Assembly (NCBI GenBank): GCA_900545745.1
Contig: URAD01000001.1
Span: 12,611-76,610 of the forward strand
Direction: 5' to 3'
DNA from: an uncultured Collinsella sp.
Lineage (GTDB): Bacteria > Actinomycetota > Coriobacteriia > Coriobacteriales > Coriobacteriaceae
Length of the DNA: 64,000 bases
The position numbers and the translations under genes were made by a program. Positions 28,474-51,352 of the stretch are shown in pieces (position 1 is the first letter of the stretch; every line of letters begins with the position of its first letter). The notes under the pieces were generated by a model. That model made no database searches and was not told the DNA's origin. It saw only the letters and a list, made by a program, of their open reading frames with translations.

Positions 28474-28474
28474 A

Positions 28475-30247
28475 TTAGAGCGCCTCCTCATCGAGCGGAG
28501 CGGCCATGGTGCCCTCGCCCGCAAGCGGCGACTTGTCGCGCCAGACGTTCTCGAACTGCTCCTTGTCGAGCACGTGGTCGCGCTTGGCGGCGACATCGGT
28601 CACCGTCACGCGGTCGGTGCAGGAGTAGCACGGGTCGAGCGAGCCGACGATCAGCGCCGCGTCGCCCACGGTGTTGCCGCGGAACATGTAGCGCAGGACC
28701 GGCCAGTTGCTGTACGTGGCGGCCTTGGCGCGCCAGCGGTAGCACTTCTGGTTGTTGCCGAGCATGGCCCAGTGCACGTCCTCGCCGCGCGGCGCCTCGG
28801 TGGCGCCGATAGCGTACTTGTGCGGGGTGTACTCCCAATCCGTGGTGAGGATGGGGCCCGACGGGCAGTTCTCGAGCATGGTCTCGATCATGTCGATCGA
28901 ATCGTAGACCTCCTGGATGCGAACGGCGGTACGGCCGAAGGCATCGCAGGTGTCGGCCGTAGCGGCATGCATCTTTTGGACGTCCGGATCGGCGTAGCCG
29001 TCGAAGGGGTGGTCAAAGCGCACGTCGCGGGCATAGCCCGAGCCACGCATGAGCGGGCCGACCGGCGAGAAGTCGCGTGCGATCTTGCGGTCCAGAATGC
29101 CGATACCGCTCGTACGCTCAATGAAGTTGGGCGTGGAGAGCAAGACGTCGACGAGCTCCTGAACCTCGGAGCGCAGCTGGTGGATGGTCGTGAGCGTGGA
29201 GAGCTTCTGCTCGGCCAAAATGTCGCGACGCACGCCGCCGATCACGTTAAGGCCGTAGGTCTTGCGGTGACCGGAGAGCTTCTCGGCCAGGTCCATGGAC
29301 TTCTCGCGGACGCGGAAGAACTGTTGGAAGCCGGAGTCGAAGCCCGTGTAGTGCGACGCCAGGCCAATGTTGAGCAGATGCGAGTGCAGGCGCTCGACCT
29401 CGAGCATGATAGCGCGGATGTACTGGGCGCGCGGCGGGACATGAATGCCCTGGGCGCGCTCGACGGCCTCGGCGTAGGCCACCGAGTGGGCGCAGCCGCA
29501 GATGCCGCAGATGCGGTCGGCGAGGAACGTCACGGCGTCATAGTTCAGGCGCGTCTCGGCGACCTTCTCCATGCCGCGGTGCACGTAGAACAGACGGTAA
29601 TCGGCGTCGACGATCGTCTCGCCCTCGACGAACAGGCGGAAGTGGCCGGGCTCGTCGGAGGTGATGTGCAGCGGTCCCATGGGGACGAGCGTCGTCTCCT
29701 TGCCCTTGGTATCGGCCAAGAACTCGTAGTTTTCCATGTCGCTCGCGGGAGCGGGACGGAAGCGGTAGTCCATGGAGTCCTTGCGCAGCGGATACAGGCC
29801 GCTGGGCCAATCGTCGGGCAGCACCAGGCGGCGACGATCGGGCAGGCCCTCGGGAATCAGGCCGAACATGTCGCGCAGCTCGCGCTCGCCCCACACGCAG
29901 GCGGGGACGAACGGCGTCACGGACGGGAACGTCATCTTGGCGGGATCGACCTCGGTGCGCACGGTCACCCAGCCGGGGTCCTCCCCCTCCATGGAGATGA
30001 CGTAGTACACGGCGTAGCGACCGCACAGACTGCGCTCGTCGTTGCCGATAATCACGGGAATCCAGCCGTAGCGCTCGTAATACAGGTAATGGACGGCCTC
30101 GGGCAGCTTGTCCTGCTTGACGGTAATCGTCAGCTGGTCCTCGCACTGCCACTCGACCTTCTCGATGCAGCCCGGAACGGCGCGGCGCAGGGCCTCGACA
30201 TGGCTCTCGCAGCGACGGGCATACACCTTGTTCTCAGTTTCAATCAT
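28475..30247 (-). CDS. hycE: [NiFe] hydrogenase large subunit, group 4 (HycE/HyfG; NuoC-NuoD fusion)
   Basis: N-terminal RICGICG... and C-terminal DPCYSCTDR Ni-Fe ligand motifs. A C-terminal tail follows for HycI processing. Confidence 0.9.
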   Translation of the reverse strand: MIETENKVYARRCESHVEALRRAVPGCIEKVEWQCEDQLTITVKQDKLPEAVHYLYYERYGWIPVIIGNDERSLCGRYAVYYVISMEGEDPGWVTVRTEVDPAKMTFPSVTPFVPACVWGERELRDMFGLIPEGLPDRRRLVLPDDWPSGLYPLRKDSMDYRFRPAPASDMENYEFLADTKGKETTLVPMGPLHITSDEPGHFRLFVEGETIVDADYRLFYVHRGMEKVAETRLNYDAVTFLADRICGICGCAHSVAYAEAVERAQGIHVPPRAQYIRAIMLEVERLHSHLLNIGLASHYTGFDSGFQQFFRVREKSMDLAEKLSGHRKTYGLNVIGGVRRDILAEQKLSTLTTIHQLRSEVQELVDVLLSTPNFIERTSGIGILDRKIARDFSPVGPLMRGSGYARDVRFDHPFDGYADPDVQKMHAATADTCDAFGRTAVRIQEVYDSIDMIETMLENCPSGPILTTDWEYTPHKYAIGATEAPRGEDVHWAMLGNNQKCYRWRAKAATYSNWPVLRYMFRGNTVGDAALIVGSLDPCYSCTDRVTVTDVAAKRDHVLDKEQFENVWRDKSPLAGEGTMAAPLDEEAL

Positions 30248-30250
30248 TCG

Positions 30251-31810
30251 TTACTCCACCTCGCTCTGAGCGGTCTCGGTACCGAACACAGCGCGGTACA
30301 TCGGCGTCGCGTGAAGTTCCTCGGTGCTCTGCTCGAGCACGATGCCGGTCGCGGTCTCCACACCGTGCACGAGGGGCAGCGGGGTGGCGATGCCAAACCA
30401 CAAGATCATGACAGCCAGGATGATTTCGGGGATAAGCATGAGCACCGGGGCCTCATGCTTATCCATGCCCTGGGGCGCATGGCCGAATACCGACTTGAGT
30501 GCGATGCGGGTGAGCGCGGAGATGGCCACGGTAAGACCGAGGGCAACCACGACGACCAACCACATGGGACCGGCGGTAACACCGGCGACAAAGGTCAGGA
30601 ACTCGGAGATAAACATGCCAAAGGGCGGGAAGGCACCAAGACCGAGCAGCGCCAGGACGGCGAGCGCGGCGGTTGCGGGGGCAACCTCGACGACGCCCTG
30701 GATCTTGGCCAGGCTACGCGTGCCAAAGGCGTGCTGGATGTTGCCGGACACGCAGAAGGCAAGCGTCTTGGTAAAGCCGTGGAACACGCAGTGCAGCAGG
30801 GCCGCGGCGATACCCAGCGGGCCACCGATACCCAGGCACAGGGCGATAACGCCCACGTTCTCCACAGACGAGTACGCAAAGCGGCGCTTGAGGTCGTCCT
30901 GGCGAAACATCGAAAGTGCCGCCACCAAAATGGACAGCGTGCCGACGATCAGCAGCAAAAGTTGCGGATACTCGGCGCCCACGGCCTGGATGGTAAAGCC
31001 GTAGAAGCGCATGATCACAAGCATGGCGCACTTAAGCAGCACGCCCGAGAGCAGGGCCGAGACAGGGCTCGGGGCCTGGGAGTGGGCATCGGGCAGCCAA
31101 GTGTGCATGGGGAACAGGCCGGCCTTGGTGCCAAAGCCGATCACGACAAACGCAAAGGCGAGGCGCATGAGCGTCGGGTCGAACTGGTCGGCATACGGCA
31201 GCACGCACGACAGGAATGCGGCCTCGTGGGCGTTGGGAATCACGTCGGCGGCGTTGGCGTAGATCAGCAGCGTGCCGAACAGGCCGAAGGCCACGCCGGC
31301 GGTGCAGACCATCGCATACTTCCAAGAAGCCTCGAGGGCCGTCTTGTTCTTGTAGATACCCACGAGGAACACGGTGGAAAGCGTGGTTGCCTCCACGGCG
31401 GCCCACGTGAGGATCATGTTGTTGGACAGGCACGCGAGCAGCATGGTGAACACAAAAAGGCTAAACAGCGCAAAATACTGCTTGGCGCGCTCGGCGGGCA
31501 TGGAGCCCTCCTCGATATCGGCCTTTACATAGGGCAGCGAGAACAGCCCCGTAAGAAAACCGATAAAGCCGATGAGCAGCACAAAGATGGCGCCCAGCGA
31601 ATCGAGGTGGAACCACAGGCCAAGAGCGCTCGCGGTTTCGCCGCTCGTAAGGACGTCACCGGCCGTCATAATCGACAGCACCAGTACGGCTGCGACGGAG
31701 ACCAGGTTGAGACCGGCAAATACGTTATAGGACGTATTCTTGGGCAAAAACGCCATGACCAGCGAGAACACCAAAGGAGTCGCGAGCAGGGCGAGAATCA
31801 ACGTTTCCAT
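30251..31810 (-). CDS. hyfF: hydrogenase-4 membrane subunit F (NuoN/M-like antiporter module)
   Basis: 519-aa polytopic NuoN-like protein. Position and size match E. coli HyfF (526 aa). Confidence 0.8.
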   Translation of the reverse strand: METLILALLATPLVFSLVMAFLPKNTSYNVFAGLNLVSVAAVLVLSIMTAGDVLTSGETASALGLWFHLDSLGAIFVLLIGFIGFLTGLFSLPYVKADIEEGSMPAERAKQYFALFSLFVFTMLLACLSNNMILTWAAVEATTLSTVFLVGIYKNKTALEASWKYAMVCTAGVAFGLFGTLLIYANAADVIPNAHEAAFLSCVLPYADQFDPTLMRLAFAFVVIGFGTKAGLFPMHTWLPDAHSQAPSPVSALLSGVLLKCAMLVIMRFYGFTIQAVGAEYPQLLLLIVGTLSILVAALSMFRQDDLKRRFAYSSVENVGVIALCLGIGGPLGIAAALLHCVFHGFTKTLAFCVSGNIQHAFGTRSLAKIQGVVEVAPATAALAVLALLGLGAFPPFGMFISEFLTFVAGVTAGPMWLVVVVALGLTVAISALTRIALKSVFGHAPQGMDKHEAPVLMLIPEIILAVMILWFGIATPLPLVHGVETATGIVLEQSTEELHATPMYRAVFGTETAQSEVE

Positions 31811-31813
31811 GGA

Positions 31814-32467
31814 CTACCCCCTCAGCTCGGACAGGTCGCGCGCATCGAGCGAGTGGGAGTCGTCCCAAATGCGACGCACGACGATGGACATGATGATGAC
31901 GGCAAAGATGGCGTCGGTGGCGATACCGATCTCGATGATCTCGGGAGCGGTGGGGGCCAAAAGCGCGAGCGTCACATGGCTGCCGTTTTCCATAAGGCAG
32001 TATCCAAAGATCTGCTTCATGATGTTGCGCTGCGAGATGATGCAGGTGAGGCCCACAAAGAAGTGAGCGAAGCTAATAGCGAGCGCAGGCGTTGCGACCT
32101 CGGCCGTGGGCAGGCTGATCTGCGTCACGACGGCAAAGCAGATCGCGACCTCCACGGCGATGATGCAAATGGCCCACGCGGGCTTAAGGCCGGCCTTGAG
32201 CGATGCGTCGCTCGGCTCACCCATCTTCTTGTATGCGCGGTTGAGGATGTAAGGGACCAGGACGACCTTGGTGATAAAGGCAGATCCGGCCCACATAAGC
32301 AGCTCCTGCGCACCGGTAGTGGCACCGAGCGTGGCGAGCAGTCCCACGAGCACCAGCGACTGCACTGCATACCAGCTGATGGCATGCTTGATGTTCTTGG
32401 AGACGACCACCATGGTGGACGTGACGATCAGAAGGCCGCCAAGGATGTTGACGATCGAATAACCCAT
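31814..32467 (-). CDS. hyfE: hydrogenase-4 membrane subunit E
   Basis: 217-aa polytopic protein. Position and size match HyfE (216 aa). Confidence 0.75.
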   Translation of the reverse strand: MGYSIVNILGGLLIVTSTMVVVSKNIKHAISWYAVQSLVLVGLLATLGATTGAQELLMWAGSAFITKVVLVPYILNRAYKKMGEPSDASLKAGLKPAWAICIIAVEVAICFAVVTQISLPTAEVATPALAISFAHFFVGLTCIISQRNIMKQIFGYCLMENGSHVTLALLAPTAPEIIEIGIATDAIFAVIIMSIVVRRIWDDSHSLDARDLSELRG

Positions 32468-32480
32468 GTCGTTCTACCTC

Positions 32481-33938
32481 CTAACCGATCCAGCTGGCCG
32501 AAAGCGGGCCGCTGACGATAACCATGATGATGAGCACGATGAACACGAATGCCATCGCGCGGGGAAGCGGGGCTCCCGCAGCGACCTCGTCGCTCGGCTC
32601 GCCGGGCAGGCAATAGCCCATCCACTTGAGGAACCAGGCGAAGGTGGCGACGGTCTCGGCGACCATAATGCACACGAGAACCAGGATCGCAACGTTGCCG
32701 GCACCCACAGAAAAGCCGCCGGCGATGATCTGGAACTTCGAGAAGAACGTGTTCATGGGCGGCACGCCGGCAATGGCGAGCGCCGCGACACCAAAGCCCA
32801 CGCCCGAGATCGGGTACTTCTTTACGATGCCGCGAAGCTTGGGCAGCATACGCGTGCCGAGGGTAAAGGAGAACGAACCGGCGATCAGGAAGAACAGCGT
32901 CTTGGCGAAGGCGTGGTTAAAGATGTGGCACACGGCGCCATCAAAGGCCAGCTGGCTGCCAAAGACCGAAAGACCCAGACCAAAGAACACATAGGAGAGC
33001 TGGGCGATCGTGGAGAAGGCCAGCAGGCGCTTCATGTCCTTTTGCGGCAGGTACATAAGGAAACCAAAGAGCATGGTGACCATGGCGTCGATAATGGCGA
33101 CCCAGCCCACGATCTCGGGAATCTCGCCGGCAGAGACGAGTGCACGCGCGAACACGCACACGCCGACCTTGACCATCGAGGCGCCATGCAGGTAGGCCGA
33201 AACAGGCGTCGGCGCCTCCATGGCCGAAGGCAGCCACATGTACATGGGAACCTGTGCGGACTTGGCCCAGGCCGCAAACAGCACGAGTAAAAGGACGATA
33301 GCCTTGAGCTTGGCGTCGAGGCCGGCAATCGCGGTAATGGCGAAGGTGCCGGTGTGGGCAAACACGATGGCGGCGCCCAGATACAGGCCAAGCGCACCGA
33401 TATGCGTAATGATCAGGGCCTTCATGCCGGCCTTTTTGGCCGTAGGCGACATGTAGTAGCTAATGAGGCCCCAAGAGCAAGCACCCGTGATCTCAAAGAA
33501 CACAAGCTGGCCCAAAAGGGTCGAGCTGTACACGAGGCCGGCCATGGCGCCGATGAAGGTCGCGAGGTACGCGTAGAAGCGACGACGCGGTGCATCGGGA
33601 TGCTCACGGTTATTCTCGCTCATATAGGGGATCGAATAGATCACGACAAGCAGGCCGATACCCACAAAGGCGGGCGCGAGCAGCGTGCTCATGCGATCGA
33701 AGGTGAATCCCATGACGAGGGTCCGCCCAAACGAGATCAGGGGGACCTGCGTGTCGGGCATGCCGGCGCCAGCGAAATTCGCGGCGAGGGCGATGGTGCA
33801 GACCGTCGAGACGGCGGCACCCAAAACGCTGAACCACTTGGCGTACGGACGGGGGAACAGGGCGACAAGCACCGAGGCCACCATCGGGGCCGCGATAGCG
33901 ACCAAGCCGAGAAGGGACAGACTGACTGCAAATGACAT
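32481..33938 (-). CDS. hyfD: hydrogenase-4 membrane subunit D (NuoL/M-like)
   Basis: 485 aa. Position and size match HyfD (479 aa). Confidence 0.8.
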   Translation of the reverse strand: MSFAVSLSLLGLVAIAAPMVASVLVALFPRPYAKWFSVLGAAVSTVCTIALAANFAGAGMPDTQVPLISFGRTLVMGFTFDRMSTLLAPAFVGIGLLVVIYSIPYMSENNREHPDAPRRRFYAYLATFIGAMAGLVYSSTLLGQLVFFEITGACSWGLISYYMSPTAKKAGMKALIITHIGALGLYLGAAIVFAHTGTFAITAIAGLDAKLKAIVLLLVLFAAWAKSAQVPMYMWLPSAMEAPTPVSAYLHGASMVKVGVCVFARALVSAGEIPEIVGWVAIIDAMVTMLFGFLMYLPQKDMKRLLAFSTIAQLSYVFFGLGLSVFGSQLAFDGAVCHIFNHAFAKTLFFLIAGSFSFTLGTRMLPKLRGIVKKYPISGVGFGVAALAIAGVPPMNTFFSKFQIIAGGFSVGAGNVAILVLVCIMVAETVATFAWFLKWMGYCLPGEPSDEVAAGAPLPRAMAFVFIVLIIMVIVSGPLSASWIG

Positions 33939-33953: not shown

Positions 33954-34880
33954 CTACACGCCAACGACCACGAAAACAAACGCCAGAACGGCGATGCCCA
34001 CAACGGCCCAAGTCTGATTGCCAAGCACCTTAAAACGCGAGCGCGAGCAGGAGTTCTCGATTACGCCGCACACGACAAAGTCGATCAGGCACTTCACCAG
34101 GAAGATAACCGCGCCCAAAACGGCGGCGGCACCCACGGTCGCGGGCTCACCCCAGGGGACAAAGATCGCGCAGAACCAAGCAACGACCAGGACCTGCTTC
34201 ATGGACATGGCGAGCTTGGCCATGGCAAGCGACGGGCCGGAAAGCTCGGCGAGCGGACCTTCCTGAAGCTCCTGCTCGGCCTCGGCCTGATCAAACGGCA
34301 GTTTGCCGAGTTCCATGTAGCAGGCAATCGCAAAGGTGATGCCGGCGAGGATCACGGCGACCGGCGCGTCGATGGCGCCCGTCATGATGTGCTGACCCAT
34401 GGTGGCGATGTCGGTGGAGCCGCAAACCAGGGCAGCGGCAAACAGCGCCAGCAGCATAGACGGCTCGATGAGCACGCTCATGAGCAGCTCGCGGACGCCG
34501 CCGATACCGGCGTAGGCGTTGGACGAATCCACACCGCAGAGGGCGAAGAAGAAGCGGGCGAGCGCCAGGCTGTACATGATGGTGATGGCGTCACCAAAGA
34601 CCGGGATGGGGCTTTGTGCCGTAAAGAGCGGCAGACCCATCGCGAGCATAAAGGCAACGGCGAAGAACAGCGGCGGCATAATGCGCAGCGCAAAGCTCGC
34701 GTCCTCGCTCTGGGACTCGGGGCGCGCAAAGAGCTTGGCCAGGTCGCGGTAGTCCTGCATGATGCTGGGGCCGCGACGGTTGTGCATCTTGGCGCGGATC
34801 ACGCGACCGAGACCGGAGAAGAACGGCGCGACGGCCATAACGACCACGCCCTGCAGAACGGCAAGTACGATGTTGTTCAT
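33954..34880 (-). CDS. hycD: formate hydrogenlyase membrane subunit, NuoH-like (HycD/HyfC)
   Basis: 308-aa NuoH-like protein (GLGRVIRAKMHNRRGP...). Confidence 0.85.
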   Translation of the reverse strand: MNNIVLAVLQGVVVMAVAPFFSGLGRVIRAKMHNRRGPSIMQDYRDLAKLFARPESQSEDASFALRIMPPLFFAVAFMLAMGLPLFTAQSPIPVFGDAITIMYSLALARFFFALCGVDSSNAYAGIGGVRELLMSVLIEPSMLLALFAAALVCGSTDIATMGQHIMTGAIDAPVAVILAGITFAIACYMELGKLPFDQAEAEQELQEGPLAELSGPSLAMAKLAMSMKQVLVVAWFCAIFVPWGEPATVGAAAVLGAVIFLVKCLIDFVVCGVIENSCSRSRFKVLGNQTWAVVGIAVLAFVFVVVGV

Positions 34881-34892: not shown

Positions 34893-36911
34893 TTAACCCA
34901 TTTGCACGGCGAGCACGAGGAACACCACGAGTGCCGCGACGATGTAGCAGATATAGATGCTGTAGTTGCCGCCCTCGAGCTTAGTCGCGAGGTCGGCGAG
35001 CTTCTCGACACCCTTATGCGAGGCATCGACGAGAACCTTGTCGGGTACGGGCTCCACAGCCTCGGCCACACCGGTGAGCTTCTGGAAGAAGTGCGCGATG
35101 GACCAGCAGACGGCCGTGCAGCGGTCGCGCAGCGTGTAGAGCGGCTGCATAAACCAGGACACCTCGGAAGCAAAGGTCGTGGCCACGACGGGCATATGCT
35201 CGTTGGGAGCATAGCCGCACGCCCACGGCTGGGACTTCTGCACCTTGCCGACGGTCTTGAGCTTGCGATAACCGCAGGCAAGGCCGACGAGCACCACGAG
35301 CGCAATGGCGATCGCGGGCGTGGAGGTGGCAGCGCCGGAGTACTGGTTCATGAGCTCCATGCCCTCGGCGGCAAACACGCCACCGTACGGATGCAGCACG
35401 GACGCGGCGACATCGACCAGCACGGGCGCGATCACGGGAGCGCCAATGCCCAGCACGACGCAGATGGCCGCGAGCAGGCCCTGCGCAAACACCATGGGAG
35501 CGGGAACCTCCTTGGCATTGGCCGCGGCCTCGGAGCGGGGCGCGGAGGCAAAGGAGACGCCATAGGCCTTGACGAAGCACGTGACAGCCAGCGCGCCGGT
35601 AATGGCAAGCGCGACGGCAGCGAACACGGCCACGATCATGACGGCCTTGTCGCCCTGCATGGCGGCGTTAAACAGCGACTGGTAGGTAAACCACTCGGAC
35701 ACAAAGCCGTTGAAGGGCGGGATGGCCGAGATGGCAAGCGCGCCAACGAGGAAGCAGATGGCCGTTGCCGGCATACGACGGAACAGGCCGCCCATCTTCT
35801 CCATATTGCGCGTACCCGTGGAGTACAGCAGTGCACCGGCGCCCAAGAACAGCTCGCCCTTAAACATCGCGTGGTTAAACGTGTGGTAGAGGGCGGCCAT
35901 CAGAGCCAGGACGGCGATGCCGACCGAGTTGAGCGCCATAGCGGCCATGGAGGCGCCGACGCCGAGCAGAATGATGCCGATGTTCTCGACGGAGTGATAG
36001 GCCAGCAGGCGCTTGATGTCATGCTCCTGCAGGGCGAAGGCCACGCCGAGGACCGACGAGATCGCACCGAAGACCATGACCATAAGGCCCCACCAGACCT
36101 GAACGCCCGAGGCGGAGAGCAGGTCGAGGCCCACCTTGAGGATGCCGAAGATACCGATCTTGATCATGCCGCCGGACATGAGGGCCGACACGTTGGACGG
36201 CGCCTCGGGATGCGCCTTGGGCAGCCAGCCGTGCAGCGGGATGATACCGGCCTTGGCGCCAAAGCCAAAGAAGGCGAGCACGAAGCACACGGATGCGACC
36301 GCGGGGCTAAACTGCGTGGCGCGGAAATCCGCAAAGGCAAACGAGCCGCCGGCGAAGTTGGTCATGGTGAGGAAGCTCGCCATGATGAGCACGAAGCCCA
36401 CGTGCGCGATCACAAAGTAGAGCCAACCGCCATGGATGGAGTTCTCGTTCTCCTCGATCACGACCAGGAAGTACGAGGTCAGCGACATGAGCTCAAAGGC
36501 GACCAGGAACCAAAACACGTTGTCGGCGGTGATGACGAGCATCATGGACGCCACGAAGGTGTTAAAGAAGAAGCCGGCGCGGCCCTTTTTGCCCGGGTAC
36601 TCATCAAAGTAGTTGAGGCCGTAGATCGAACCGGCAAACGCAAGCACCGAGATGAGCGCCACGAACAGGCCGGACAGCTGATTGAGCAGCAGCTGGAAAT
36701 GGGCAAACGGGAAGAACACGATGGTGTCGACCGACGTGACATCGCCCAGCACGGCCTGGATACCGGCCACAAACGAAAGCACCGCGGCGACGGCGCCGAT
36801 AAGGCAGCCGGCGGTCTTGGCGGCGTTATCGGCCTTGATCAGCAGAACCGAGGCGAGCGCACCGATGCACGAGACGGCAAGCGATGCGATAAACAGCGTC
36901 ATGCTATCCAT
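34893..36911 (-). CDS. hyfB: hydrogenase-4 membrane subunit B (NuoL-like)
   Basis: 672 aa, the same length as E. coli HyfB. Polytopic NuoL-like. Confidence 0.85.
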   Translation of the reverse strand: MDSMTLFIASLAVSCIGALASVLLIKADNAAKTAGCLIGAVAAVLSFVAGIQAVLGDVTSVDTIVFFPFAHFQLLLNQLSGLFVALISVLAFAGSIYGLNYFDEYPGKKGRAGFFFNTFVASMMLVITADNVFWFLVAFELMSLTSYFLVVIEENENSIHGGWLYFVIAHVGFVLIMASFLTMTNFAGGSFAFADFRATQFSPAVASVCFVLAFFGFGAKAGIIPLHGWLPKAHPEAPSNVSALMSGGMIKIGIFGILKVGLDLLSASGVQVWWGLMVMVFGAISSVLGVAFALQEHDIKRLLAYHSVENIGIILLGVGASMAAMALNSVGIAVLALMAALYHTFNHAMFKGELFLGAGALLYSTGTRNMEKMGGLFRRMPATAICFLVGALAISAIPPFNGFVSEWFTYQSLFNAAMQGDKAVMIVAVFAAVALAITGALAVTCFVKAYGVSFASAPRSEAAANAKEVPAPMVFAQGLLAAICVVLGIGAPVIAPVLVDVAASVLHPYGGVFAAEGMELMNQYSGAATSTPAIAIALVVLVGLACGYRKLKTVGKVQKSQPWACGYAPNEHMPVVATTFASEVSWFMQPLYTLRDRCTAVCWSIAHFFQKLTGVAEAVEPVPDKVLVDASHKGVEKLADLATKLEGGNYSIYICYIVAALVVFLVLAVQMG

Positions 36912-37521
36912 TGTTTACGCTCCCTTCTGCTTTCTCGGACAGGCCCTGGGCCACAGCGGTAACGTCGACGACCGGACCGTTTTCGATCGAGCGCAGGCGC
37001 TTGGCCTCGTCGAGCTCGCGATCGGCCGCGCCACCCATGACGGTCAGCGCCTTGGTGGGGCACGCCGCCACACAATGCGGGCCGTCCGGATCGAAGGCGC
37101 ACAGGTCGCACTTGACAGCGCAGGTGTACTGACCAGGAGCCCACGTAAGCAGGCTGCTCAGGGACTTAGGATACGAAGGCGTCGGGTCGCACATGCCTGC
37201 GACACCGGCGATAGACGTGCCATCGGGATGGATGGCTCCGAAGGGGCACGCGATGGCGCACAGCCTGCACCCGATGCACTCCTGCTCCTTGACGTGGATG
37301 CGATCGCCATCGTGCTCGATGGCATTCACCGGGCAAACCTCGGCGCAGGGGGCACCCTCGCAATGGTGGCAGGCAAGGGCGGCCGAAATACCGCCGGTCT
37401 TCACGAGCGCCAGGCGCGGCGTATCCTGAAGACCCTGCATCCGGTGGGCGTCGGCACAGGCGGACTGACATGTTCCGCAGCCGATGCACCTCTCCGGGTT
37501 GATGTCGATGAAGCGGTTCAT
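36904..37521 (-). CDS. hyfA: formate hydrogenlyase 4Fe-4S ferredoxin subunit (HycB/HyfA)
   Basis: Four CxxCxxCxxxCP clusters (CIGCGTCQSAC, CEGAPCAEVCP, CIGCRLCAIACP, CDLC...CVAACP). Confidence 0.85.
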   Translation of the reverse strand: MNRFIDINPERCIGCGTCQSACADAHRMQGLQDTPRLALVKTGGISAALACHHCEGAPCAEVCPVNAIEHDGDRIHVKEQECIGCRLCAIACPFGAIHPDGTSIAGVAGMCDPTPSYPKSLSSLLTWAPGQYTCAVKCDLCAFDPDGPHCVAACPTKALTVMGGAADRELDEAKRLRSIENGPVVDVTAVAQGLSEKAEGSVNNG

Positions 37522-37599
37522 CCCCACTTCCTTTCAAAATAACGGGCCGGACTCCCGAACGTACGGGACGCCCGGCCCAAAAAGCCAACGAGAACGGGA

Positions 37600-39873
37600 C
37601 TACACGATTTGGTTCACGTGCGTCTCGTCGTCGAACTTGGCGGCACCGGGCTCAACGTCCTGGGGAGCGGCGGCGTCCACCAGAGCCTGCTTGAGCTCGG
37701 TGTACTGACGCTCGACCTCGCCCTCGGCCCAGACCTGGTCGGCAATGGCGTCGACCTGGCAGGCGGAAAACTTGTCCTCGGGCGTGTGCGAGACCGGGTC
37801 GACCTTGTGCATGGTCAGCTCGTTGCACTTGCCGATCCACCACTGGTAGGTCATATAGACCGTGCCCTTGTTGATGCGGTCGCTCACGTCGGCGCGGCTG
37901 TATACCTGGCCGCGGCGGCTGTGAATCGAGACGATGTCGCCGTTCTTGATGCCGCGCGCCTGGGCGTCCGCGGGATTCATGCGAACAAAGCCGGGCTCGT
38001 CGGCGAGCAGCGCCAGCGTCTTGCAGTTGCCGGTCATCGAGCGGCAGCTGTAGTGGCCGACCTCGCGGACGGTGCACAGGATGAGCGGGTACTCATCGTC
38101 GGGAAGCTCGGAGGGCGCCTCCCAGTCGTGCGCCATCAGGTTGGCGCGGCCGTCCTTGGTGGTGAACTTGCCACCAGCGAACATGTCGGGCGTACCGTGG
38201 TCGTTCACATCGGTGCTCTTGACCGGCCACTGGGCGTAACCGCCCTCGGGAGCCATCTTCTCGTAGGTCGCGCCCACAAAGTTGGGGCACAGGCTAATGC
38301 ACTCGTTCCAGATCTGCTCGGTGTTGTCGTAGTGCATGGGGTAACCCATGCGCGTGGACAGGTCCGCGAAGATCTCCCAGTCGTGGCGGCACTCGCCCTT
38401 GGGCGGAACAGCCGCGTCAAAGTGCTGGAAGCTACGGTCGGATGCAGTAAAGACACCCTCGTGCTCGCCCCAAGAGGTGGCAGGCAGGATGACGTCGGCG
38501 AGCATGGTCGTCTGCGTCATAAAGATGTCCTGGCAAATGAACAGGTCCAGCTCGGAGAGCGTCTTGCGCATACCGGCCGAATCGGGCTCGGTCTGCACCG
38601 GGTCCTCGCCGTAGTTGTAGAAGCAGTGCACCTTGCCCTCGTCGACCAGGTGGCCCAGGTCGGTGAGCTTGTAGCCCTCCTCGAGCGGGAGCTTTTCCTC
38701 GGGCACGCCCCAAGCCTTGGCAAACTTGGCACGCACTGCCGGGTCGGTGACCTTCTGGTAGCCAGGGTACAGGTTGGGCAGCATGCCCATATCGCAGGAG
38801 CCCTGGACGTTGTTCTGACCGCGCACGGGCGCGAGGCCGGAATTGGGTTTGCCGATCTGGCCGGCAACGCAGGCGATGGAGGCGATGGTGTGCACCGTCT
38901 TCAGGTTCTGCTTCTGCTGGCATACGCCCATACCCCAGCCAATGATGGCAGAGGGCTTCGCCGTGGCGTACATCTCGGCAGCTTGGTGGATCAACGCGGG
39001 CTCGACACCCGTGATGTCCTGTACGGATTCGGGAGTGTAGTTTTTGATGGTCTCCCACCATTCGTCAAAGCCGTTCGTGTGCTCGGCGACGAATTCCTTG
39101 TCGTAGAGGCCATCGTTGACCAAGCAGTTGGCAAAGGCGTTGAGGAACGCAACGTTGCAACCGTTCTTGATCGGAAGGTAGAGATCGGCGATACGCGCGG
39201 TTTCGATATGGCGCGGGTCGGCGACGATGATCTTGCAACCCTTTTCTTTGGCTCGCACGATACGCCTTGCGACGATGGGGTGCGAATCGGCAGGGTTATA
39301 GCCGAAGAGGAAAATGCAGCCCGCATCCTCCATACCGGGGATGGAGCATGACATGCAACCTGAACCAACCGTGTCCATCAGACCGAGGACAGTAGGGCCG
39401 TGTCAAGTACGGGCGCAGTTGTCCACGCTGTGGGTGCCGATGCACGCACGCGTAAACTTCTGCATGACGTAGTTCGCCTCATTGCCGCCGCCTCGCGAAG
39501 AGCCGGTGGTCATGACAGCGTTAGGACCATATTCGTCAATTATGGCCTGCATCTTAGATGCGGTGAAATCCAGTGCCTCGTCCCAGCTTACGCGCTCAAG
39601 ATCCGCGCCCTTAGTGCGGCGGATCATCGGGTGCAGCACGCGAGGAGTCAAGATCTTGGTGTCGTTGATGAAGTCGTAGCCGCTCATGCCCTTAAGGCAC
39701 AGCTCGCTCTGGTTGGTGATGCCGTTGAGCGGTTCGGTACCCACGACCTGGCCGTTTTGGACCAAGAGGTTAAACTGGCAACCGGCGCCGCAATACGGGC
39801 AGATCACTTTATGCTTCTCCATGACACCCTCCTTCCTTTTTCTGCTACCGAATACTCGGTACTTATTTGACAA
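37600..39873 (-). CDS. fdhF: formate dehydrogenase H, selenocysteine-containing; in-frame TGA (Sec) at 39403-39405
   Basis: Two track ORFs (39403..39873 and 37600..39378) are collinear with E. coli FdhF across the stop: ...DNCART-[TGA]-HGPTVLGL... versus E. coli ...CCARV-U-HGPSVAGL.... The sequence right after the TGA (CACGGCCC ... GGUCUG) resembles my recollection of the E. coli fdhF bacterial SECIS. selA, selB, selC and selD are present in this window. Confidence 0.85.
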
Positions 39874-39896
39874 TCATTGGGCCTGTCGCCCGACGC

Positions 39897-40415
39897 TTAC
39901 GCCTCGTTTTCGATGGTGGCGCGGGCACGCTCGGCAGTCAGTTCTGCCAGACGCTCCTCGTCTACCAGGGTGAGGCCCTTGGTCGGGCACGCCTCGGCAC
40001 ACGCCGGACCGCCGGGACGGTCCACGCACAGGTCGCACTTGAGCACGAAGCTCTTAGTCTGCGAACCCACGCGAACGTCACCCATCAAGACGGGGACTTG
40101 CGTGGTCGCCACGCTCACGGCGCCAAAGGGGCATGCCATGACGCAGCTCTTGCAACCGATGCAGTTGTCTTCGTTGACGCCGATGCGATGGTTCTTTGGA
40201 TCAAAGAACAAGGCGCCCGTGGGGCAGGCCTTGGCGCACGGAGCGTCCTCGCAGTGGTGACATGCCACCGGTGCGGAAATCTCGTACGTACGCGTCACAC
40301 GCAGGCGCGGCGCGGCGATGTTGCCGGGAATATCGTGCGCCTCGATGCACGCCGCCATACAGGTTTGGCACCCAATGCAACGTGAGGAATCGGCTACGAC
40401 TCGTTTATTGCCCAT
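39897..40415 (-). CDS. hydN: 4Fe-4S ferredoxin-type electron-transfer protein (HydN/HycB-like) leading the FHL operon
   Basis: CIGCQTCMAAC, CHHCEDAPCAKACP, CIGCKSCVMACP, CDLC...CAEACP. Start at MGNKRVV with a GGAGGGAG RBS. Confidence 0.75.
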   Translation of the reverse strand: MGNKRVVADSSRCIGCQTCMAACIEAHDIPGNIAAPRLRVTRTYEISAPVACHHCEDAPCAKACPTGALFFDPKNHRIGVNEDNCIGCKSCVMACPFGAVSVATTQVPVLMGDVRVGSQTKSFVLKCDLCVDRPGGPACAEACPTKGLTLVDEERLAELTAERARATIENEA

Positions 40416-40593
40416 GTTGTTCACTCCCTCCTGAATCCCATGCCGGAGAGACCCTGTCGACGTTGCCCCGGACCGCCCGTGGTCCGGCATCGGCGTATCG
40501 AGTGCATGCGGCGAAACAGGCACTTCGATAGAATTCCTCCAACGATATACAGGTAAAATATACGCAGTTGCAGGTGGCAAACTTGAGCATACG

Positions 40594-40619
40594 CCCTGCA
40601 ATACGGGTGTATTGCAGGG
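40594..40619. promoter_or_regulatory. 10-bp perfect inverted repeat ccctgcaata-N6-tattgcaggg in an AT-rich region upstream of the hydN-fdhF-hyf operon
   Basis: Seen directly in sequence, about 180 bp upstream of the hydN start, in the only AT-rich stretch of this region. Confidence 0.3.
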
Positions 40620-40777
40620 GTTTTGGCAGGTTGGAATTATTCTCTAGAAGCTATAAAGGTGAGTGTATTACATGCGTACATCCAAGGGAGATTTCACGCT
40701 CGTTTATAAAGGATGTAATACGTTTGATATATATTTCGCGCTCATTTACTTGAGTGCAATAAAGCAGTGGTTATAAG

Positions 40778-40797
40778 ATTGGCTATTATTAGCCAAT
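40778..40797. promoter_or_regulatory. palindrome attggcta-ttat-tagccaat upstream of the second toxin-antitoxin operon; candidate antitoxin operator
   Basis: 8-bp perfect arms, about 45 bp upstream of the 40844 start. Confidence 0.35.
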
Positions 40798-40843
40798 GTT
40801 GTAATTGACCATTCATGTTGCACGCTCATTAAGGGGGCCAGTG

Positions 40844-41167
40844 ATGTCATCGACGCAAAAACGAGCCATCCTGCAGGTGCGCATTCGCGAAGAGGACAAA
40901 CAGCATGCCGAGCGCCTCTACGACGCCATGGGCACATCGCTCGCCGAGGCTGTCCGTCTATTTGTCGTGCAAAGCATTTTGATGCGCAAGCTTCCCTTTC
41001 AGCCGGTCGCCGTGCGCTCAAAGGACGGCACCGCCGCCTATGGATCGCTCAAAGCATATGGGGACCCCAATCGCCGCTCCGAGGAGCGCAATGCCTGGAT
41101 TGAATACCTAGCCACAGAAAGCGATGAGTCGGTTTTGGGTCCCGAGGAAGTAGATATCCATGAGTAG
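40844..41167 (+). CDS. RelB/DinJ-family type II antitoxin (second copy)
   Basis: MSSTQKRAILQVRIREEDKQHAERLYDAMGTSLAEAVRLFVVQSILMRKLPFQP matches the DinJ RHH pattern. AAGGGGG RBS. It overlaps the downstream gene. Confidence 0.6.
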   Translation: MSSTQKRAILQVRIREEDKQHAERLYDAMGTSLAEAVRLFVVQSILMRKLPFQPVAVRSKDGTAAYGSLKAYGDPNRRSEERNAWIEYLATESDESVLGPEEVDIHE

Positions 41168-41636
41168 CACCATCATCGACGAGACCGTCATCCTGCGCTA
41201 CCTGCTTAACGACGACGAGGTCCTGTCACCGCGCGCCGCCAAGGTCATCGCCACGCGCACCGCTCGCGTCTACCCCGAGATCATCACACGCGTCGCCGTT
41301 ACGCTGCGCGACGTCTACAAGGTCCCGCGCGTGGAGATTGCGACGGCCATGACCAAGCTGCTCGATGACGTCATGGTCGACGAGCCCACCGTTATCGCCC
41401 TTGCCATCAAACTCTTTGGCAAGACTCATATGGACTTTACCGACTGCCTCCTCGCAGCCCGAACCGCCATCTATAACGACGACGTCGTGAGCTTTGGCAA
41501 GCCCATCATCCAAGGCATGATCGACTACCGCCGCCAGCGCCAAACCGCCGCCGACGCCCGCGACCGCGCCGCCGAAGCCCGCAGCCGAAGCACCGACTCC
41601 ACCATCGACAAGCTCCGTCACCGCCCCCGCAGCTAA
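41160..41636 (+). CDS. PIN-like toxin partner (degenerate PIN; DTN replaced by DET)
   Basis: IIDETVILRYLLNDD ... MDFTDCLLAARTAIYNDDVVSF. Same size and architecture as the 1222..1707 PIN protein, with translational coupling to the antitoxin. Confidence 0.45.
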   Translation: MSSTIIDETVILRYLLNDDEVLSPRAAKVIATRTARVYPEIITRVAVTLRDVYKVPRVEIATAMTKLLDDVMVDEPTVIALAIKLFGKTHMDFTDCLLAARTAIYNDDVVSFGKPIIQGMIDYRRQRQTAADARDRAAEARSRSTDSTIDKLRHRPRS

Positions 41637-44766: not shown

Positions 44767-45906
44767 TTAGCAGGCTAAATCGCATAGAGCATCGATAGCC
44801 GTGTCAACTTCTTCGGTAGTGTTGAAATACCCAAACGAGAAGCGAACGATACCCTGGCGCTCGGTCCCCAGCGCGCGGTGCATGAGCGGAGCGCAATGGG
44901 CGCCGGGGCGCGTCGCAATCCCCCACCCTTGCATGAGCGCGTCCGAGATCTCGGCAGAGTCGATATCGCCCACGTTGAGCGACGCAATCGCAGAGCGCAT
45001 CGGCTGGTCAAAGGCACCATAGAGCTTAATCCCCGGAATCTCGCGCACGCCGGCGAGGAAACGCTCGGCAAGCGCGCGCTCACGCGCCGCAATCGCCTCG
45101 GCCCCACCCTGGGCCTCGATAAAGTCGAGACCGGCAGAAAGGCCCGCGATGCCGTGACCGTTGAGCGTGCCCGCCTCAAGGCGCGTGGGCCACTCAAGCG
45201 GCTGCAGCGCATCGAAGCTGTGCACGCCCGTGCCGCCCATGGCCCAGGGCGCCACGTCGACACCCTCCGCCACGGCCAGACCGCCGGTGCCCTGCGGGCC
45301 CATCAATCCCTTGTGGCCGGTAAAGCACACGACGTCGAGCCCCATGGCCTGCATGTCGATCTTCGCCGTACCGGCAGACTGGGAGGCGTCGACGATCACC
45401 AGCGCACCGGCAGCATGAGCCATGGCCGCCACGCGCGCAATGTCGACCGCGTTGCCGGTCACATTGGAGGCGTGCGTCACCACCACAGCACGCGTGCCCA
45501 GCGTGACCAACCGCTCGAGCTCGTCGTAGTCGAGCACGCCGCTCGCATCGCAGCCCGCATGCTCAACGGTCACACCCTGCTCTGCCGCAAGGCGGTTAAG
45601 CGGACGCAGCACGGAGTTGTGCTCGAGCACCGTTGTGACCACACGGTCGCCGGGGCGCACCACGCCGTTTATGGCAGTGTTGAGCGCCGCCGTGGAGTTG
45701 GGCGTAAAGCACACATGGTCCGCCCTCGGGCAACCCAAAAGGCGCGCGAGCTTGGCACGGCAAACGTGAATCGTACGAGCGGCATCGAGGGCACCCGACG
45801 TGGCGCCGCGCCCGGCATTGCCGAGCGAGCACATCGCCTGCGTCACGGCATCGATGACCGTCTGCGGCTTGTGCATGGTCGTCGCCGCGTTATCCAGATA
45901 GATCAT
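44767..45906 (-). CDS. class V aminotransferase-fold cysteine desulfurase / selenocysteine lyase-like enzyme
   Basis: YLDNAATT ... PLP-lysine motif (FTGHKGLMGPQGTGGL). It is adjacent to DUF3343, yedF and selD. Confidence 0.8.
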   Translation of the reverse strand: MIYLDNAATTMHKPQTVIDAVTQAMCSLGNAGRGATSGALDAARTIHVCRAKLARLLGCPRADHVCFTPNSTAALNTAINGVVRPGDRVVTTVLEHNSVLRPLNRLAAEQGVTVEHAGCDASGVLDYDELERLVTLGTRAVVVTHASNVTGNAVDIARVAAMAHAAGALVIVDASQSAGTAKIDMQAMGLDVVCFTGHKGLMGPQGTGGLAVAEGVDVAPWAMGGTGVHSFDALQPLEWPTRLEAGTLNGHGIAGLSAGLDFIEAQGGAEAIAARERALAERFLAGVREIPGIKLYGAFDQPMRSAIASLNVGDIDSAEISDALMQGWGIATRPGAHCAPLMHRALGTERQGIVRFSFGYFNTTEEVDTAIDALCDLAC

Positions 45907-46154
45907 CGCACGACCTCCCACATATCAATCACGGTATAGCCCTCGGTGGGAACACCCGCCTCGGCGAGTTCGCCGCGCAGCAGTTCCTCATCGGCAGGCA
46001 ACGCCTTCCACGCCAGACCGCAGCCGGCAGCGACCTCCCCGGGCACGGGAATCGTTCGCCCGGGAAGGCCGCGCTCAATGCACAGGGACTCGCAGCCCAT
46101 GGCGGCCGCCGTGGTGGGAAACGTGATGACAAGCGCCGGGCGCTTCTCCCTCAT
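45903..46154 (-). CDS. DUF3343 (putative Se/S carrier protein-like)
   Basis: MREKRPALVITFPTTAAAMGCESLCIERGLPGRTIPVPGEVAAGCGLAW. Its stop overlaps the start of the downstream desulfurase. Confidence 0.6.
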   Translation of the reverse strand: MREKRPALVITFPTTAAAMGCESLCIERGLPGRTIPVPGEVAAGCGLAWKALPADEELLRGELAEAGVPTEGYTVIDMWEVVR

Positions 46155-46173: not shown

Positions 46174-46800
46174 CTACGGGCGCACGACGCGCACGGCCTG
46201 CTCCATCTTCTCCACAATCACGTACATATTCGTGACCTCGCCCACCGCGAGCTGGTCCTTAATGCCATAGTGATCGAGGCAGGTACCGCAGGTGAGAATC
46301 TCGACACCCTGCTCGGCCAGACCCTTCAGGTCGTCGAGCACCGGCGAGCCCTCGACGGTGAGCTTGGCGCCGCCGTTGTAGAACAGCATGGTCGCGGGCA
46401 GCTCCTCCTGCTGCGTCACGGCAAAGATAAACGCCTTCATGAGCTTGTGGCCCAGCTCGTCGTCGCCACGGCCCATGCAGTCGGTGTAGACGGAAATGAC
46501 GAGCTTGCCCTTGCCGGCGCTGGCATCACAGAAGGCAGCGCCATCCTGCTCGGGATCGGCCACGGCAACGGCGCCAGAGGTCGCCACGGTCACGTGCCAC
46601 TCGGCGTCAGAAACCTTCTCGACCGAGGCCGTGCAGCCTTTCTCCTGCGCCATCTTGGAAATGTTCTTGACGGCGGTCTCATTATCGACCGAGGTCACGA
46701 CGGCGCCCTCGCCATCGAGCTGCTTCAGGGCTTTGAGCGTCTTGACGACGGGCAGCGGGCAGGCATCGCCCATGGCATTGACTTCAATTTTGGTAGACAT
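46174..46800 (-). CDS. yedF: selenium metabolism protein YedF (TusA-like N-domain + DsrE-like C-domain)
   Basis: MGDACPLPVVKTLKALKQL is a TusA CPxP motif. The C-terminal half is DsrE/DsrF-like. About 200 aa. Confidence 0.7.
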   Translation of the reverse strand: MSTKIEVNAMGDACPLPVVKTLKALKQLDGEGAVVTSVDNETAVKNISKMAQEKGCTASVEKVSDAEWHVTVATSGAVAVADPEQDGAAFCDASAGKGKLVISVYTDCMGRGDDELGHKLMKAFIFAVTQQEELPATMLFYNGGAKLTVEGSPVLDDLKGLAEQGVEILTCGTCLDHYGIKDQLAVGEVTNMYVIVEKMEQAVRVVRP

Positions 46801-46860: not shown

Positions 46861-47910
46861 CTAGCGAACAACGTGGACGGCAGGACCGCCTGGCACCGAC
46901 TCGCACACGCGACCGACGACGGCGGCAATACGTCCTTCGGCATGCAGACGGCGCGCAAGCTCATCCACATCGGCAGCAGGTGCCGCGATAAGCAGGCCAC
47001 CAGACGTCTGCGGGTCGTACAGCGCGTCGAGCATGCCCGGCTCAAGGTCCTCGTCGGCCGTCACGCGCGGGCCAAAGAAGTCCTGGTTGCGGTAGGAGCC
47101 CGCGGGGATAATGCCCAAACGCGCCATGTCGAGCACCTGGTCAAAGAGCGGCACCGCCCCCGACGCAAGCTCAATCTGCACGCCCGAGCCCTCGGCCATC
47201 TCGCACGCATGCCCGATCAGGCCAAAGCCCGTGATGTCGGTGCAGCCGTGAAGCTCAAGTCCCTCGGCCAGACGAATCGGAGCCTCGTTGAGGGTGCGCA
47301 TCGAGTCAAACATGGCTGCGGCCTCGTCCTGCTCGATGAGCTCGCCCTTAATGGCCGTGGTGATGATGCCCGAGCCAACCGCCTTGGTCAGCAGTAACGC
47401 ATCGCCCACGCGCGCGCCGCTGTTGGCGAGCATGCGGTCGAGCGCGACAAACCCGCTCACGGACAGGCCGTACTTGGGCTCGTCGTCGTTGATGGTGTGA
47501 CCGCCCGCGATGGAGCAACCCGCCTCGACGCACTTGTCGGCGCCGCCCGCCAGAATCTGACCGGCAACCTCAACGCCCAGACAGCTCGGGATGCACAGCA
47601 AGTTCATGGCATGGCTCGGCCGCCCGCCCATGGCGTAGATGTCCGACAGCGAGTTTGCCGCGGCGATCTGGCCAAACAAAAACGGGTCGTCGACCATCGG
47701 TGGGAAGAAGTCGATGGACTGCACGAGACCCAAGTTATCGCCAACGCGAAAGACGCTCGCATCGTCGGAGGTATCGAACCCCACGAGCAAGTTGTCGTTA
47801 TGCACATTGGGTAAATCGCCCAGGACCTGGGCGAGGGCTCCAGGAGCCAACTTAGCGGCTCAACCGCTCGCGGCCGTCATAGACGTGAGCCTCATGGTGT
47901 CCTTAGCCAT
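46861..47910 (-). CDS. selD: selenide, water dikinase SelD, selenocysteine-containing; in-frame TGA at 47860-47862 (codon 17)
   Basis: The track ORF (46861..47850) lacks the catalytic N-terminus. Reading upstream through the TGA gives MAKDTMRLTSMTAASG-U-AAKLAPGALAQVL..., with a GGAAGGGAGG RBS before the ATG at 47910. The Sec is at the same position as the Cys/Sec in known SelD proteins. Confidence 0.85.
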
Positions 47911-49900: not shown

Positions 49901-49924
49901 GGCTCTCTTCCAATCTAAACATCA

Positions 49925-50052
49925 AAGGTAGCGGCGCGTTCAGGCGCCTTAGCTCTAGGTTTCTCAGGTGCCGGAGATTGCCCCGAAAGAGGAGCGCAGC
50001 GTACTTTGGGTACGCAAGCGACAGTTTGAGGGGCAAGATCCGGTGCCTGAGG
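49925..50052 (-). ncRNA. conserved structured intercistronic RNA element A (long imperfect hairpin plus a small GC hairpin) between the dehydratase-B-like gene and the activase
   Basis: The minus-strand RNA CCUCAGGCACCGGAUCUUGCCCC...GGGGCAAUCUCCGGCACCUGAG encloses a conserved apical region. It is a paralog of element B, with compensatory changes. Confidence 0.5.
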
Positions 50053-50055
50053 AAG

Positions 50056-51219: not shown

Positions 51220-51249
51220 ATAACTCCTTAACAAACCTTTTAACCAACC

Positions 51250-51352
51250 AAGGAAACGGCTTTCCCAGGTGCCCGAGGTTGCCGTGAAAGATGAGCGCCG
51301 CATACTTTGGTAGCAAGCGATGGTTTGAACGGCAAGATCGGGTGCCTGGGGA
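51250..51352 (-). ncRNA. conserved structured intercistronic RNA element B (paralog of element A) between the two dehydratase-like genes
   Basis: The minus-strand RNA CCCCAGGCACCCGAUCUUGCCG...CGGCAACCUCGGGCACCUGGG has base pairs that covary relative to element A (CUCAGG/CCUGAG to CCCAGG/CCUGGG; CCGGA/UCCGG to CCCGA/UCGGG). The ~45-nt apical region is about 85% identical. Confidence 0.5.

Follow-up and report, generated by a model that had tools for sequence, protein, structure and literature searches.

The subject of this analysis is a formate dehydrogenase gene, fdhF, and the formate hydrogenlyase (FHL) operon to which it belongs, in a stretch of 64,000 nucleotides from an uncultured, C. aerofaciens-like Collinsella sp. 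(GCA_900545745.1, contig URAD01000001.1, positions 12,611 to 76,610). This whole 64-kb stretch, with a GC content of 62%, is called the window and served as the reference. Many long entries in the mechanical list of open reading frames (ORFs) are antisense shadows, and genes were picked by third-position GC, which removed the long plus-strand ORFs 19471..21612 and 28274..32515 as shadows of this type. Nearly all genes of the resulting map are on the minus strand, and so are all features given below unless another strand is named. Fourteen of them follow one another in the order hydN-fdhF-hyfABCDEFGHI-hycH-hycI-focA.

ORF callers split fdhF into two pieces (39403..39873 and 37600..39378), which share the same minus-strand frame with a lone TGA (39405..39403) between them. 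We treat them as one gene (39822..37600) for a formate dehydrogenase of the FDH-H type with 740 aa, in which the TGA is read as selenocysteine (Sec). The TTG at 39873 is not the true start; translation begins at the ATG at 39822, which has the ribosome binding site (RBS) GGAAGGAGGG in front of it, and counted from there the TGA is codon 140 of the 740-aa protein. In a phmmer search against PDB, the read-through protein, with a placeholder at the TGA, matched E. coli FDH-H (1aa6_A) with an E-value of 1.4e-279. The alignment runs end to end, with residues 2-718 on 2-713, and the X of the crystal chain, which is Sec140, falls on the TGA; the collinearity of both ORFs with FdhF across the stop, proposed in an earlier note made without database searches, is thus borne out. 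The window peptide across this position is CART-U-HGPTVLGLMDTVGSGCMSCSIPGMEDAGCIFLFGYNPADSHPIVAR, and the comparison drawn there of CART-U-HGPTV with CARV-U-HGPSV of E. coli is correct. Also kept are His141, Arg333 (within PVRGQNNVQG) and the N-terminal CxxCxxxC...C motif of the 4Fe-4S cluster.

A search with the read-through FdhF against one genome per species gave 80 loci, most labelled Collinsella, several of them C. aerofaciens and a few labelled otherwise, whose fdhF is 97.9-98.6% identical at the DNA level to that of the window. The TGA is retained in 80 of 80. Variable sites among these genes fall on third codon positions in 271 of 297 cases, on both sides of the TGA, an excess that indicates purifying selection on the gene flanking this codon. 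The scan of genome contigs with FdhF and that of metagenomes with an alignment of the PIN-like protein described below returned close Collinsella relatives only. Wider diversity came from homologues of the N-terminal fragment of FdhF and the contigs encoding them (loci L082 to L091), the N-terminal fragments of relatives with the in-frame TGA split being 58-82% identical to that of the window. L083, a frameshifted assembly, was dropped from the analysis of the selenocysteine insertion sequence (SECIS), and the other nine, read at the DNA level, all have the in-frame TGA split. The best 120 database homologues of the 139-aa N-terminal fragment are nearly all 139-141 aa long, which means that gene callers very widely cut this family at the same codon.

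Directly at the TGA we found a putative SECIS element (39405..39361), recognized by its fold, its register, which is that of E. coli fdhF, and the covariation of its stem. Counting from the U of UGA as nucleotide 1, its lower stem pairs nt 6-10 with nt 36-40, and its upper stem pairs nt 16-21 with nt 27-33, U29 being bulged, around the apical loop GGUCU at nt 22-26 (39384..39380). The E. coli K-12 sequence was retrieved for direct comparison, and the nucleotides after the TGA are UGACACGGCCCUACUGUCCUCGGUCUG in the window and UGACACGGCCCAUCGGUUGCAGGUCUG in E. coli, in the same register. Counted from the U of UGA, the two sequences share the beginning UGACACGGCCC, the pairing of nt 6-10 with nt 36-40 and the GGUC at nt 22-25, so that the resemblance to the E. 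coli element, which had been suggested earlier, holds against the actual sequence.

The loop GGUCU occupies nt 22-26 in all 11 sequences compared, and its glycine codon is always GGU, though GGC makes up 63% of the glycine codons in the window. Around it, nt 16-21 pair with nt 27-33 at six of six positions in 9 of the 11 lineages, with stems of five kinds (GUCCUC/GAGGAC, GUCAUC/GAUGAC, GUCGUC/GA(U/C)GAC, GUCUCC/GGAGAC and GUGGCC/GGCCGC). At most one bulged base was chosen per sequence, and under the same rule other positions of each gene reach 6/6 pairing in only 0.2-1% of cases. The two lineages outside this rule, E. coli and L089, both pair in a shifted register. Among the 80 Collinsella genes, the 48 nt after the TGA have a single variable site, against a mean of 6.4. 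We conclude that what follows the TGA is, by its predicted structure, a SECIS of the fdhF type, with an upper stem that differs in detail from that of E. coli.

Four observations weigh against this conclusion. First, the fold energy of the element is no better than that of shuffled sequences (z of 0.06 to 0.23); the E. coli fdhF SECIS itself is unremarkable in this test (z of -0.67), which indicates that it is powerless on such short hairpins in coding sequence. Second, RNAalifold on the ungapped alignment of 11 sequences gave only trivial structure, since the position of the bulge shifts the register between lineages, and the fixed-position stem test with matched controls was used in its place. 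Third, the Rfam models SECIS_3 and SECIS_2 scored only 18.9 bits (gathering threshold of 63) and 16.5 bits (gathering threshold of 70), though both alignments are full-length and place UGA on UGA. As the SECIS_2 consensus is close to the E. coli fdhF SECIS, the element would lie outside these particular models and not outside the SECIS class. Finally, the upper stem is bulged on its 3' side, whereas the U17 bulge of E. coli is on the 5' side.

A complete set of selA, selB, selC and selD lies inside the window. The genes selA (22715..21258; SelA TIGR00474, 520 bits) and selB (21261..19294; SelB TIGR00475, 279.5 bits with a cut-off of 242) are followed by selC (19144..19048), a tRNA-Sec with anticodon UCA found by ARAGORN and by Rfam RF01852 (64.6 bits). 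The C-terminal winged helix of SelB is recognized by Pfam SelB-wing_3 at residues 611-645. The selenophosphate synthetase gene selD (47910..46861; SelD TIGR00476, 339.9 bits) has a split of its own: the ORF as called begins at profile position 16, and an in-frame TGA (47862..47860) forms codon 17 downstream of an ATG at 47910 with an RBS. The sequence around it is MAKDTMRLTSMTAASG-TGA-AAKLAPGAL (motif ...ASG-U-AAK), in which the UGA and the following Lys presumably correspond to Cys17 and Lys20 of E. coli SelD. By this sequence, SelD is predicted to be another selenoprotein that the ORF track has split. Downstream of selD come yedF (46800..46174; YedF match) and then a sclA-like gene (45921..44767; SclA-like match) for a cysteine desulfurase or selenocysteine lyase.

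With FdhF and SelD, the window has two selenoproteins, in agreement with the count of two listed for C. aerofaciens in Table 4 of PMC1976440. The tabulated entries of PMC1976440 and PMC2432076 on selenium genomics of this species give that count without names, operon or SECIS. Table 1 of PMC2432076 places selD, a SirA-like neighbour and a molybdenum (Mo) hydroxylase gene on one C. aerofaciens contig, and the spacing of about 31.8 kb from selD to the Mo-hydroxylase given there is that of the window (selD 46861.., xdhA-like ..15091).

Taken together, we consider fdhF to be one gene for a cytoplasmic, Sec-containing molybdopterin formate dehydrogenase, with Sec at the active-site residue 140, and give this reading a probability of about 0.93. 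In the proposed mechanism, SelB·GTP with Sec-tRNA(Sec) would bind the hairpin starting 13 nt past the UGA, whose apical loop GGUCU would present G23 and U24 in the same register as in E. coli. Selenocysteine would then be delivered by SelB at the UGA in place of termination, with selC providing the tRNA, SelA converting it and SelD supplying the selenium donor. From these parts and from homology we infer that Sec is actually inserted and that the product oxidizes formate.

That the TGA is a nonsense mutation in an fdhF pseudogene or a sequencing error, for which one could cite the split made by ORF callers and the unexceptional fold energy past the TGA, is scarcely credible, since the codon is identical in 80 of 80 independent Collinsella assemblies and in nine more distant lineages, falls exactly on Sec140 beside a present sel machinery, and is flanked by two halves that are both under purifying selection, relaxed constraint past it not being seen. 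A start and RBS of its own for the downstream ORF, and the lack of a SECIS-like hairpin, had been named beforehand as signs of a pseudogene; we found that the ATG at 39378, where this ORF starts, has no Shine-Dalgarno sequence and that a hairpin does follow the TGA. The position of the same ATG, 24 nt past the TGA, could also suggest two separate polypeptides, a 139-aa Fe-S fragment and a 592-aa protein. We see next to no chance of this, since besides the missing Shine-Dalgarno sequence such a split would deprive the enzyme of its catalytic Sec-His pair and run through the Mo-binding domain, and since the same apparent split occurs in fdhF of the E. coli type, a known single selenoprotein according to the statement in PMC7384014 that cites Zinoni 1987.

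The use of stop codons in the window deserves attention in this context. Its 46 genes end in TAG (24 genes), TAA (20) and TGA (2), and TGA is overall the commonest of the three stop trinucleotides in the window. One of the two genes ending in TGA has a second stop directly after it, and in the other one the TGA overlaps the ATG of selB. In the related loci L082, L084, L087 and L089 none of 57 genes stops at TGA, while 24 of 51 do so in L086, L088, L090 and L091. A scarcity of TGA among stops is unexpected at 62% GC. A literature search for low use of TGA stops or loss of release factor 2 (RF2) in Coriobacteriia found nothing relevant. Judging from these counts, there could be little competition by RF2 at UGA.

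These counts (2 of 46 in the window, 0 of 57 in four related loci) suggest an unusual handling of UGA, and they are what speaks for a further alternative, in which weak UGA termination would let Cys or Trp be inserted in fdhF rather than Sec in a SelB-dependent manner. We regard this as very unlikely, if a little less so than the two alternatives above, because selA, selB, selC and selD are apparently intact and SelD has its own UGA at the Cys17 position. In addition, the SECIS hairpin covaries and its loop GGU is invariant against the codon bias.

The gene fdhF is placed second in the cluster of fourteen genes, one more than the thirteen previously counted. It is preceded by hydN (40415..39897), for a 4Fe-4S ferredoxin of 172 aa that matches NCBIfam HydN (1.2e-39) and the AegA N-terminal domain (9.6e-44); the RBS AGGAGGGA precedes its ATG at 40415. 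Judging by its sequence, the HydN-like protein probably acts as the small subunit of FdhF or carries electrons for it. After fdhF come hyfA (37521..36904), for a 4Fe-4S subunit of 205 aa with an NCBIfam match to HydN/AegA-type ferredoxins and an RBS, and the genes of the membrane arm: hyfB (36911..34893; NCBIfam hydrogenase 4 subunit B, 684.8 bits with a cut-off of 667), hyfC (34880..33954; NuoH family, Pfam NADHdh), hyfD (33938..32481; NCBIfam hydrogenase 4 subunit D, 625.8 bits with a cut-off of 430), hyfE (32467..31814; NCBIfam membrane subunit E, 274.4 bits with a cut-off of 136) and hyfF (31810..30251; NCBIfam, 604.6 bits, just under the cut-off of 610).

The gene hyfG (30247..28475) encodes a fusion of the [NiFe] large subunit with a NuoC-like domain; it matches E. 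coli HycE (7z0s_E) with an E-value of 1e-243 and carries the motifs RICGICG and DPCYSCTDR and a C-terminal extension. It is followed by hyfH (28473..27757; FHL iron-sulfur subunit, 227 bits with a cut-off of 204), the small subunit gene hyfI (27754..26972; NuoB family), hycH/hyfJ (26971..26390; NCBIfam and Pfam HycH), the endopeptidase gene hycI (26390..25887; TIGR00142, 128.9 bits with a cut-off of 119.1) and the formate channel gene focA (25847..25008; FocA/FNT family, 3.3e-70). NCBIfam and Pfam thus confirm the hydN-like gene, the hyf-like genes, hycI and focA, which had been named from the ORF translations; ten hyf-like genes had been counted among them, and the tenth is a homologue of HycH/HyfJ. 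Since HyfB, HyfD and HyfE lie above the NCBIfam equivalog cut-offs, the predicted enzyme is of the Hyf type, that is, an FHL-2 with hydrogenase 4 (Hyd-4, group 4a [NiFe]).

By homology to E. coli FHL-1, E. coli hyf and the FHL-2 of Pectobacterium, FdhF would oxidize formate to CO2, in a complex that would sit on a complex-I-like membrane arm of five subunits, HyfBCDEF. HycI and HycH would mature HyfG, while FocA would move formate across the membrane. We infer from the sequence that this complex forms and that the locus produces H2, as well as the transcript structure that follows.

From hyfA to hycI the genes overlap or are at most 15 nt apart, with 39 nt between hycI and focA and 78 nt between fdhF and hyfA. 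A strong intrinsic terminator follows focA (24986..24950), in which the hairpin GGCCUCCCGC...GCGGGAGGC precedes UUUUU. The 71-nt stretch past the focA stop (25015..24945) folds with -37 kcal/mol (z of -3.94), and none of 200 shuffles is as stable. The co-directional cluster of 14 genes would end at this terminator. A single transcription unit, as previously claimed, agrees with the short gaps and with the position of the terminator. The claim is weakened by a second hairpin (37579..37535), which is rich in GC, has GUUAUUUUG after it and lies in the gap from the fdhF stop to the hyfA start. The 87-nt stretch that contains it (37605..37519) folds with -39.4 kcal/mol (z of -3.92), again with 0 of 200 shuffles as stable. 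It is kept in more than 120 Collinsella sequences, most of which have a C that perfects the stem, and it makes a simple single transcript uncertain. The hairpin is terminator-like in sequence, and both partial termination and stabilization of the mRNA are plausible; the hairpin may set the message of hydN-fdhF at a level above or apart from that of hyf.

This opens the possibility that hydN-fdhF is a transcription unit of its own, ending at the hairpin 37579..37535, whose products may serve acceptors besides Hyd-4. The strength of the conserved hairpin and its U-rich tail fit with it, as do the analogous hairpins, of unrelated sequence, at the same place in L082, L084 and L086, and the fact that fdhF-hydN is a separate operon in Pectobacterium (PMC13645896). 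Against it, only 78 nt separate fdhF from hyfA, no promoter-like site was found in this gap, and the gene order is conserved. Moreover, fdhF and hyfA overlap or sit 10 nt apart in L088 and L089, which suggests that their co-transcription is ancestral. We consider a separate hydN-fdhF unit possible, though less likely than not.

Upstream of hydN lies an AT-rich region (about 40500..40900) with a GC content of 0.375-0.46, compared with 0.62 for the window. An AT-rich leader with a 10-bp inverted repeat had been described here. The AT-richness and the repeat are real, but the repeat is a perfect palindrome, CCCTGCAATAC-N4-GTATTGCAGGG (40594..40619, no strand assigned), with arms of 11 bp that are 100% complementary and a loop of 4 nt, and it probably serves as an operator in the DNA rather than as an element of the leader. 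As RNA it would fold with -20.1 kcal/mol (z of -5.2). In 125 unique Collinsella sequences its arms are nearly invariant, its loop is variable and the few changes in the arms are uncompensated, a pattern in better keeping with a palindrome bound by a protein than with an RNA helix.

A conserved promoter-like block (40676..40627) lies just upstream of the palindrome, and transcription is predicted to start near 40628. The half-site TGYAATAC occurs five times in the 64 kb (1.3 expected), four of them within 40597..40721, where they make two inverted pairs: the palindrome itself and a pair flanking the promoter-like block. In L084 the equivalent intergenic region has the lone other TGYAAT-N8-ATTRCA palindrome, in one copy. 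A simple scan for the sigma-70 consensus over 39800..41300 found nothing, and three direct repeats AATGAGCGCGAAATAT are poorly conserved among Collinsella.

Divergently from hydN, on the plus strand, are a gene for a RelB-like ribbon-helix-helix protein (40844..41167; Pfam RelB, 25.7 bits) and one for a 158-aa protein with PIN-like motifs (41160..41636). Homologues occupy the same divergent place in L084, which has both (34% and 48% identity), and in L083, which has the PIN part, so that the pair is syntenic with the FHL operon in at least three lineages. The two genes may encode a toxin with its antitoxin or act as a local regulator, and the palindrome may be the operator of the pair, perhaps one that the FHL promoter uses as well.

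The 5' leader of hydN (40535..40416) is structured and is predicted to form one hairpin at 40527..40499 and another at 40487..40468. Across 70 distinct Collinsella sequences, 99.7% of the cells are paired, against 17-47% in slid controls. Five pairs are changed on both sides, among them GC/AU at column pair 52-67, AU/GC at 54-65 and UA/CG at 14-33, and none of 500 shuffles reached the covariation score, although the sequences are closely related and the independent events therefore few. Searched with a covariance model of the leader, the regions ahead of the FHL operon in other genera gave no match, and so this structure cannot be generalized beyond Collinsella. Rfam has no family that matches the leader or the inverted repeat.

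The ORFs scanned across the window yielded no FhlA- or HyfR-like protein, as the earlier note had also observed; one could be encoded elsewhere in the genome. The sigma-54 activator FhlA/HyfR is typical of enterobacterial systems and no defining feature of the enzyme. Regulation would, as far as the sequence tells, proceed without it, and the Collinsella-specific structured leader and the TGYAATAC palindrome shared with the RelB/PIN-like pair may be candidates for a control that does not depend on sigma-54. We mention as a speculation, and a doubtful one for both parts jointly, that UGA is nearly withdrawn as a stop in Collinsella and related Coriobacteriia and that FHL-2 is under an undescribed non-sigma-54 control. 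If this is true, UGA would serve almost exclusively for selenocysteine and face little competition by RF2.

Several neighbouring genes are related to molybdenum or to other anaerobic reductases. Between the focA terminator and selA lies a gene for an uncharacterized cytoplasmic molybdopterin oxidoreductase (22768..24885) with no visible twin-arginine signal, whose best match is PhsA (296 bits, below threshold). It ends 50 nt upstream of selA, and as this gap has no hairpin, the gene may be co-transcribed with selA-selB-selC. Molybdenum genes are found at 12260..16005, 18260..18892 and 53091..58510, including an XdhA-like Mo-hydroxylase with a fused Fe-S domain, a FAD subunit, mobA, modABC, moaB and moeA. 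The locus of the XdhA-like Mo-hydroxylase is among those listed under a proposed third selenium-utilization trait in PMC2432076. At 49136..52656 there are two paralogous genes for double-cubane-cluster anaerobic reductases (495 and 490 bits) and an activase of the acyl-CoA dehydratase type. Outside the window, L088 has a pyrrolysine (Pyl)-like cluster at 3562..7536 (PylS-like tRNA synthetase, radical SAM protein, ATP-grasp protein and PylD) with the FHL locus directly downstream, and its organism may, by these genes, use both Sec and Pyl.

For annotation, these results mean that the two ORFs should be merged into one fdhF selenoprotein gene and that selD (47910..46861) needs a like correction. 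A stretch of about 40 kb combines FHL, the Sec machinery, molybdate uptake and molybdenum cofactor genes. The whole machine for converting formate to H2, dependent on selenium and molybdenum, is thus encoded in an actinobacterium common in the human gut. The fdhF gene, the recoding of its UGA and the enzyme system belong to textbook knowledge and have already been recorded for this species group; the only leads that could change the understanding of them are the near absence of UGA stops and the FhlA-independent control region.

The arrangement of the operon, which had been called a notable architecture, is a common variant that has been sampled before, in which the genes are co-directional, FdhF contains Sec and no HyfR is found. 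The order hydN-fdhF(split)-hyfA-hyfB-hyfC... is found in L082, L083, L086, L088 and L089, and also in L087, where the hyfA-like ferredoxin gene was not called. L084 has the order fdhF-hydN-hyfA..., and the collection indexes its N-terminal fragment in 994 blocks. With the same arrangement or a close variant in seven other lineages sampled, and with fdhF-hydN adjoining hyf already published for Pectobacterium (PMC7384014, PMC13645896), the earlier appraisal was overstated.

Compared with known systems, FdhF of the window is collinear over 712 residues with that of E. coli (1AA6/1FDO; 7Z0T within FHL-1) and extends about 25 aa further at the C-terminus. In both genes CACGGCCC directly follows the UGA, while the sequence of the upper SECIS stem is entirely different, the loop has 5 nt (GGUCU) in the window versus 4 nt in E. 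coli, and the bulged base is U29 on the 3' side instead of U17 on the 5' side. The E. coli fdhF stands alone, far from hyc and hyf, and depends on FhlA and sigma-54, whereas that of the window adjoins hyf. E. coli hyf (hyfABCDEFGHIJR-focB) and the FHL-2 of Trabulsiella guamensis (10.1101/563510) share with the window the same set of ten hyf genes, in the same order and of the same sizes, followed by a formate channel. In both of them fdhF is encoded elsewhere (10.1101/563510), and E. coli hyf has a sigma-54 activator, while the window includes hycI and misses hyfR.

The FHL-2 of Pectobacterium atrosepticum (PMC7384014, PMC13645896) resembles the window in having Hyd-4 with the HyfB-F arm and fdhF and hydN beside hyf, and HydN of Pectobacterium was shown to be a functional small subunit (PMC7384014, PMC13645896). 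However, FdhF of P. atrosepticum has Cys140, in an organism without Sec machinery, in place of the UGA140 of the window, and its fdhF-hydN is divergent from hyfABCDEFGHIJK-hyfR, whereas in the window hydN-fdhF precedes hyfA on the same strand. P. atrosepticum also has HyfR, which was not found in the window. In the human gut, FHL is confined to Enterobacteriaceae, Pasteurellaceae and Coriobacteriaceae (PMC12578642), a family restriction with which the present locus agrees, and gut isolates carrying FHL, from a panel that included a C. aerofaciens isolate, made H2 in stationary phase (PMC12578642).

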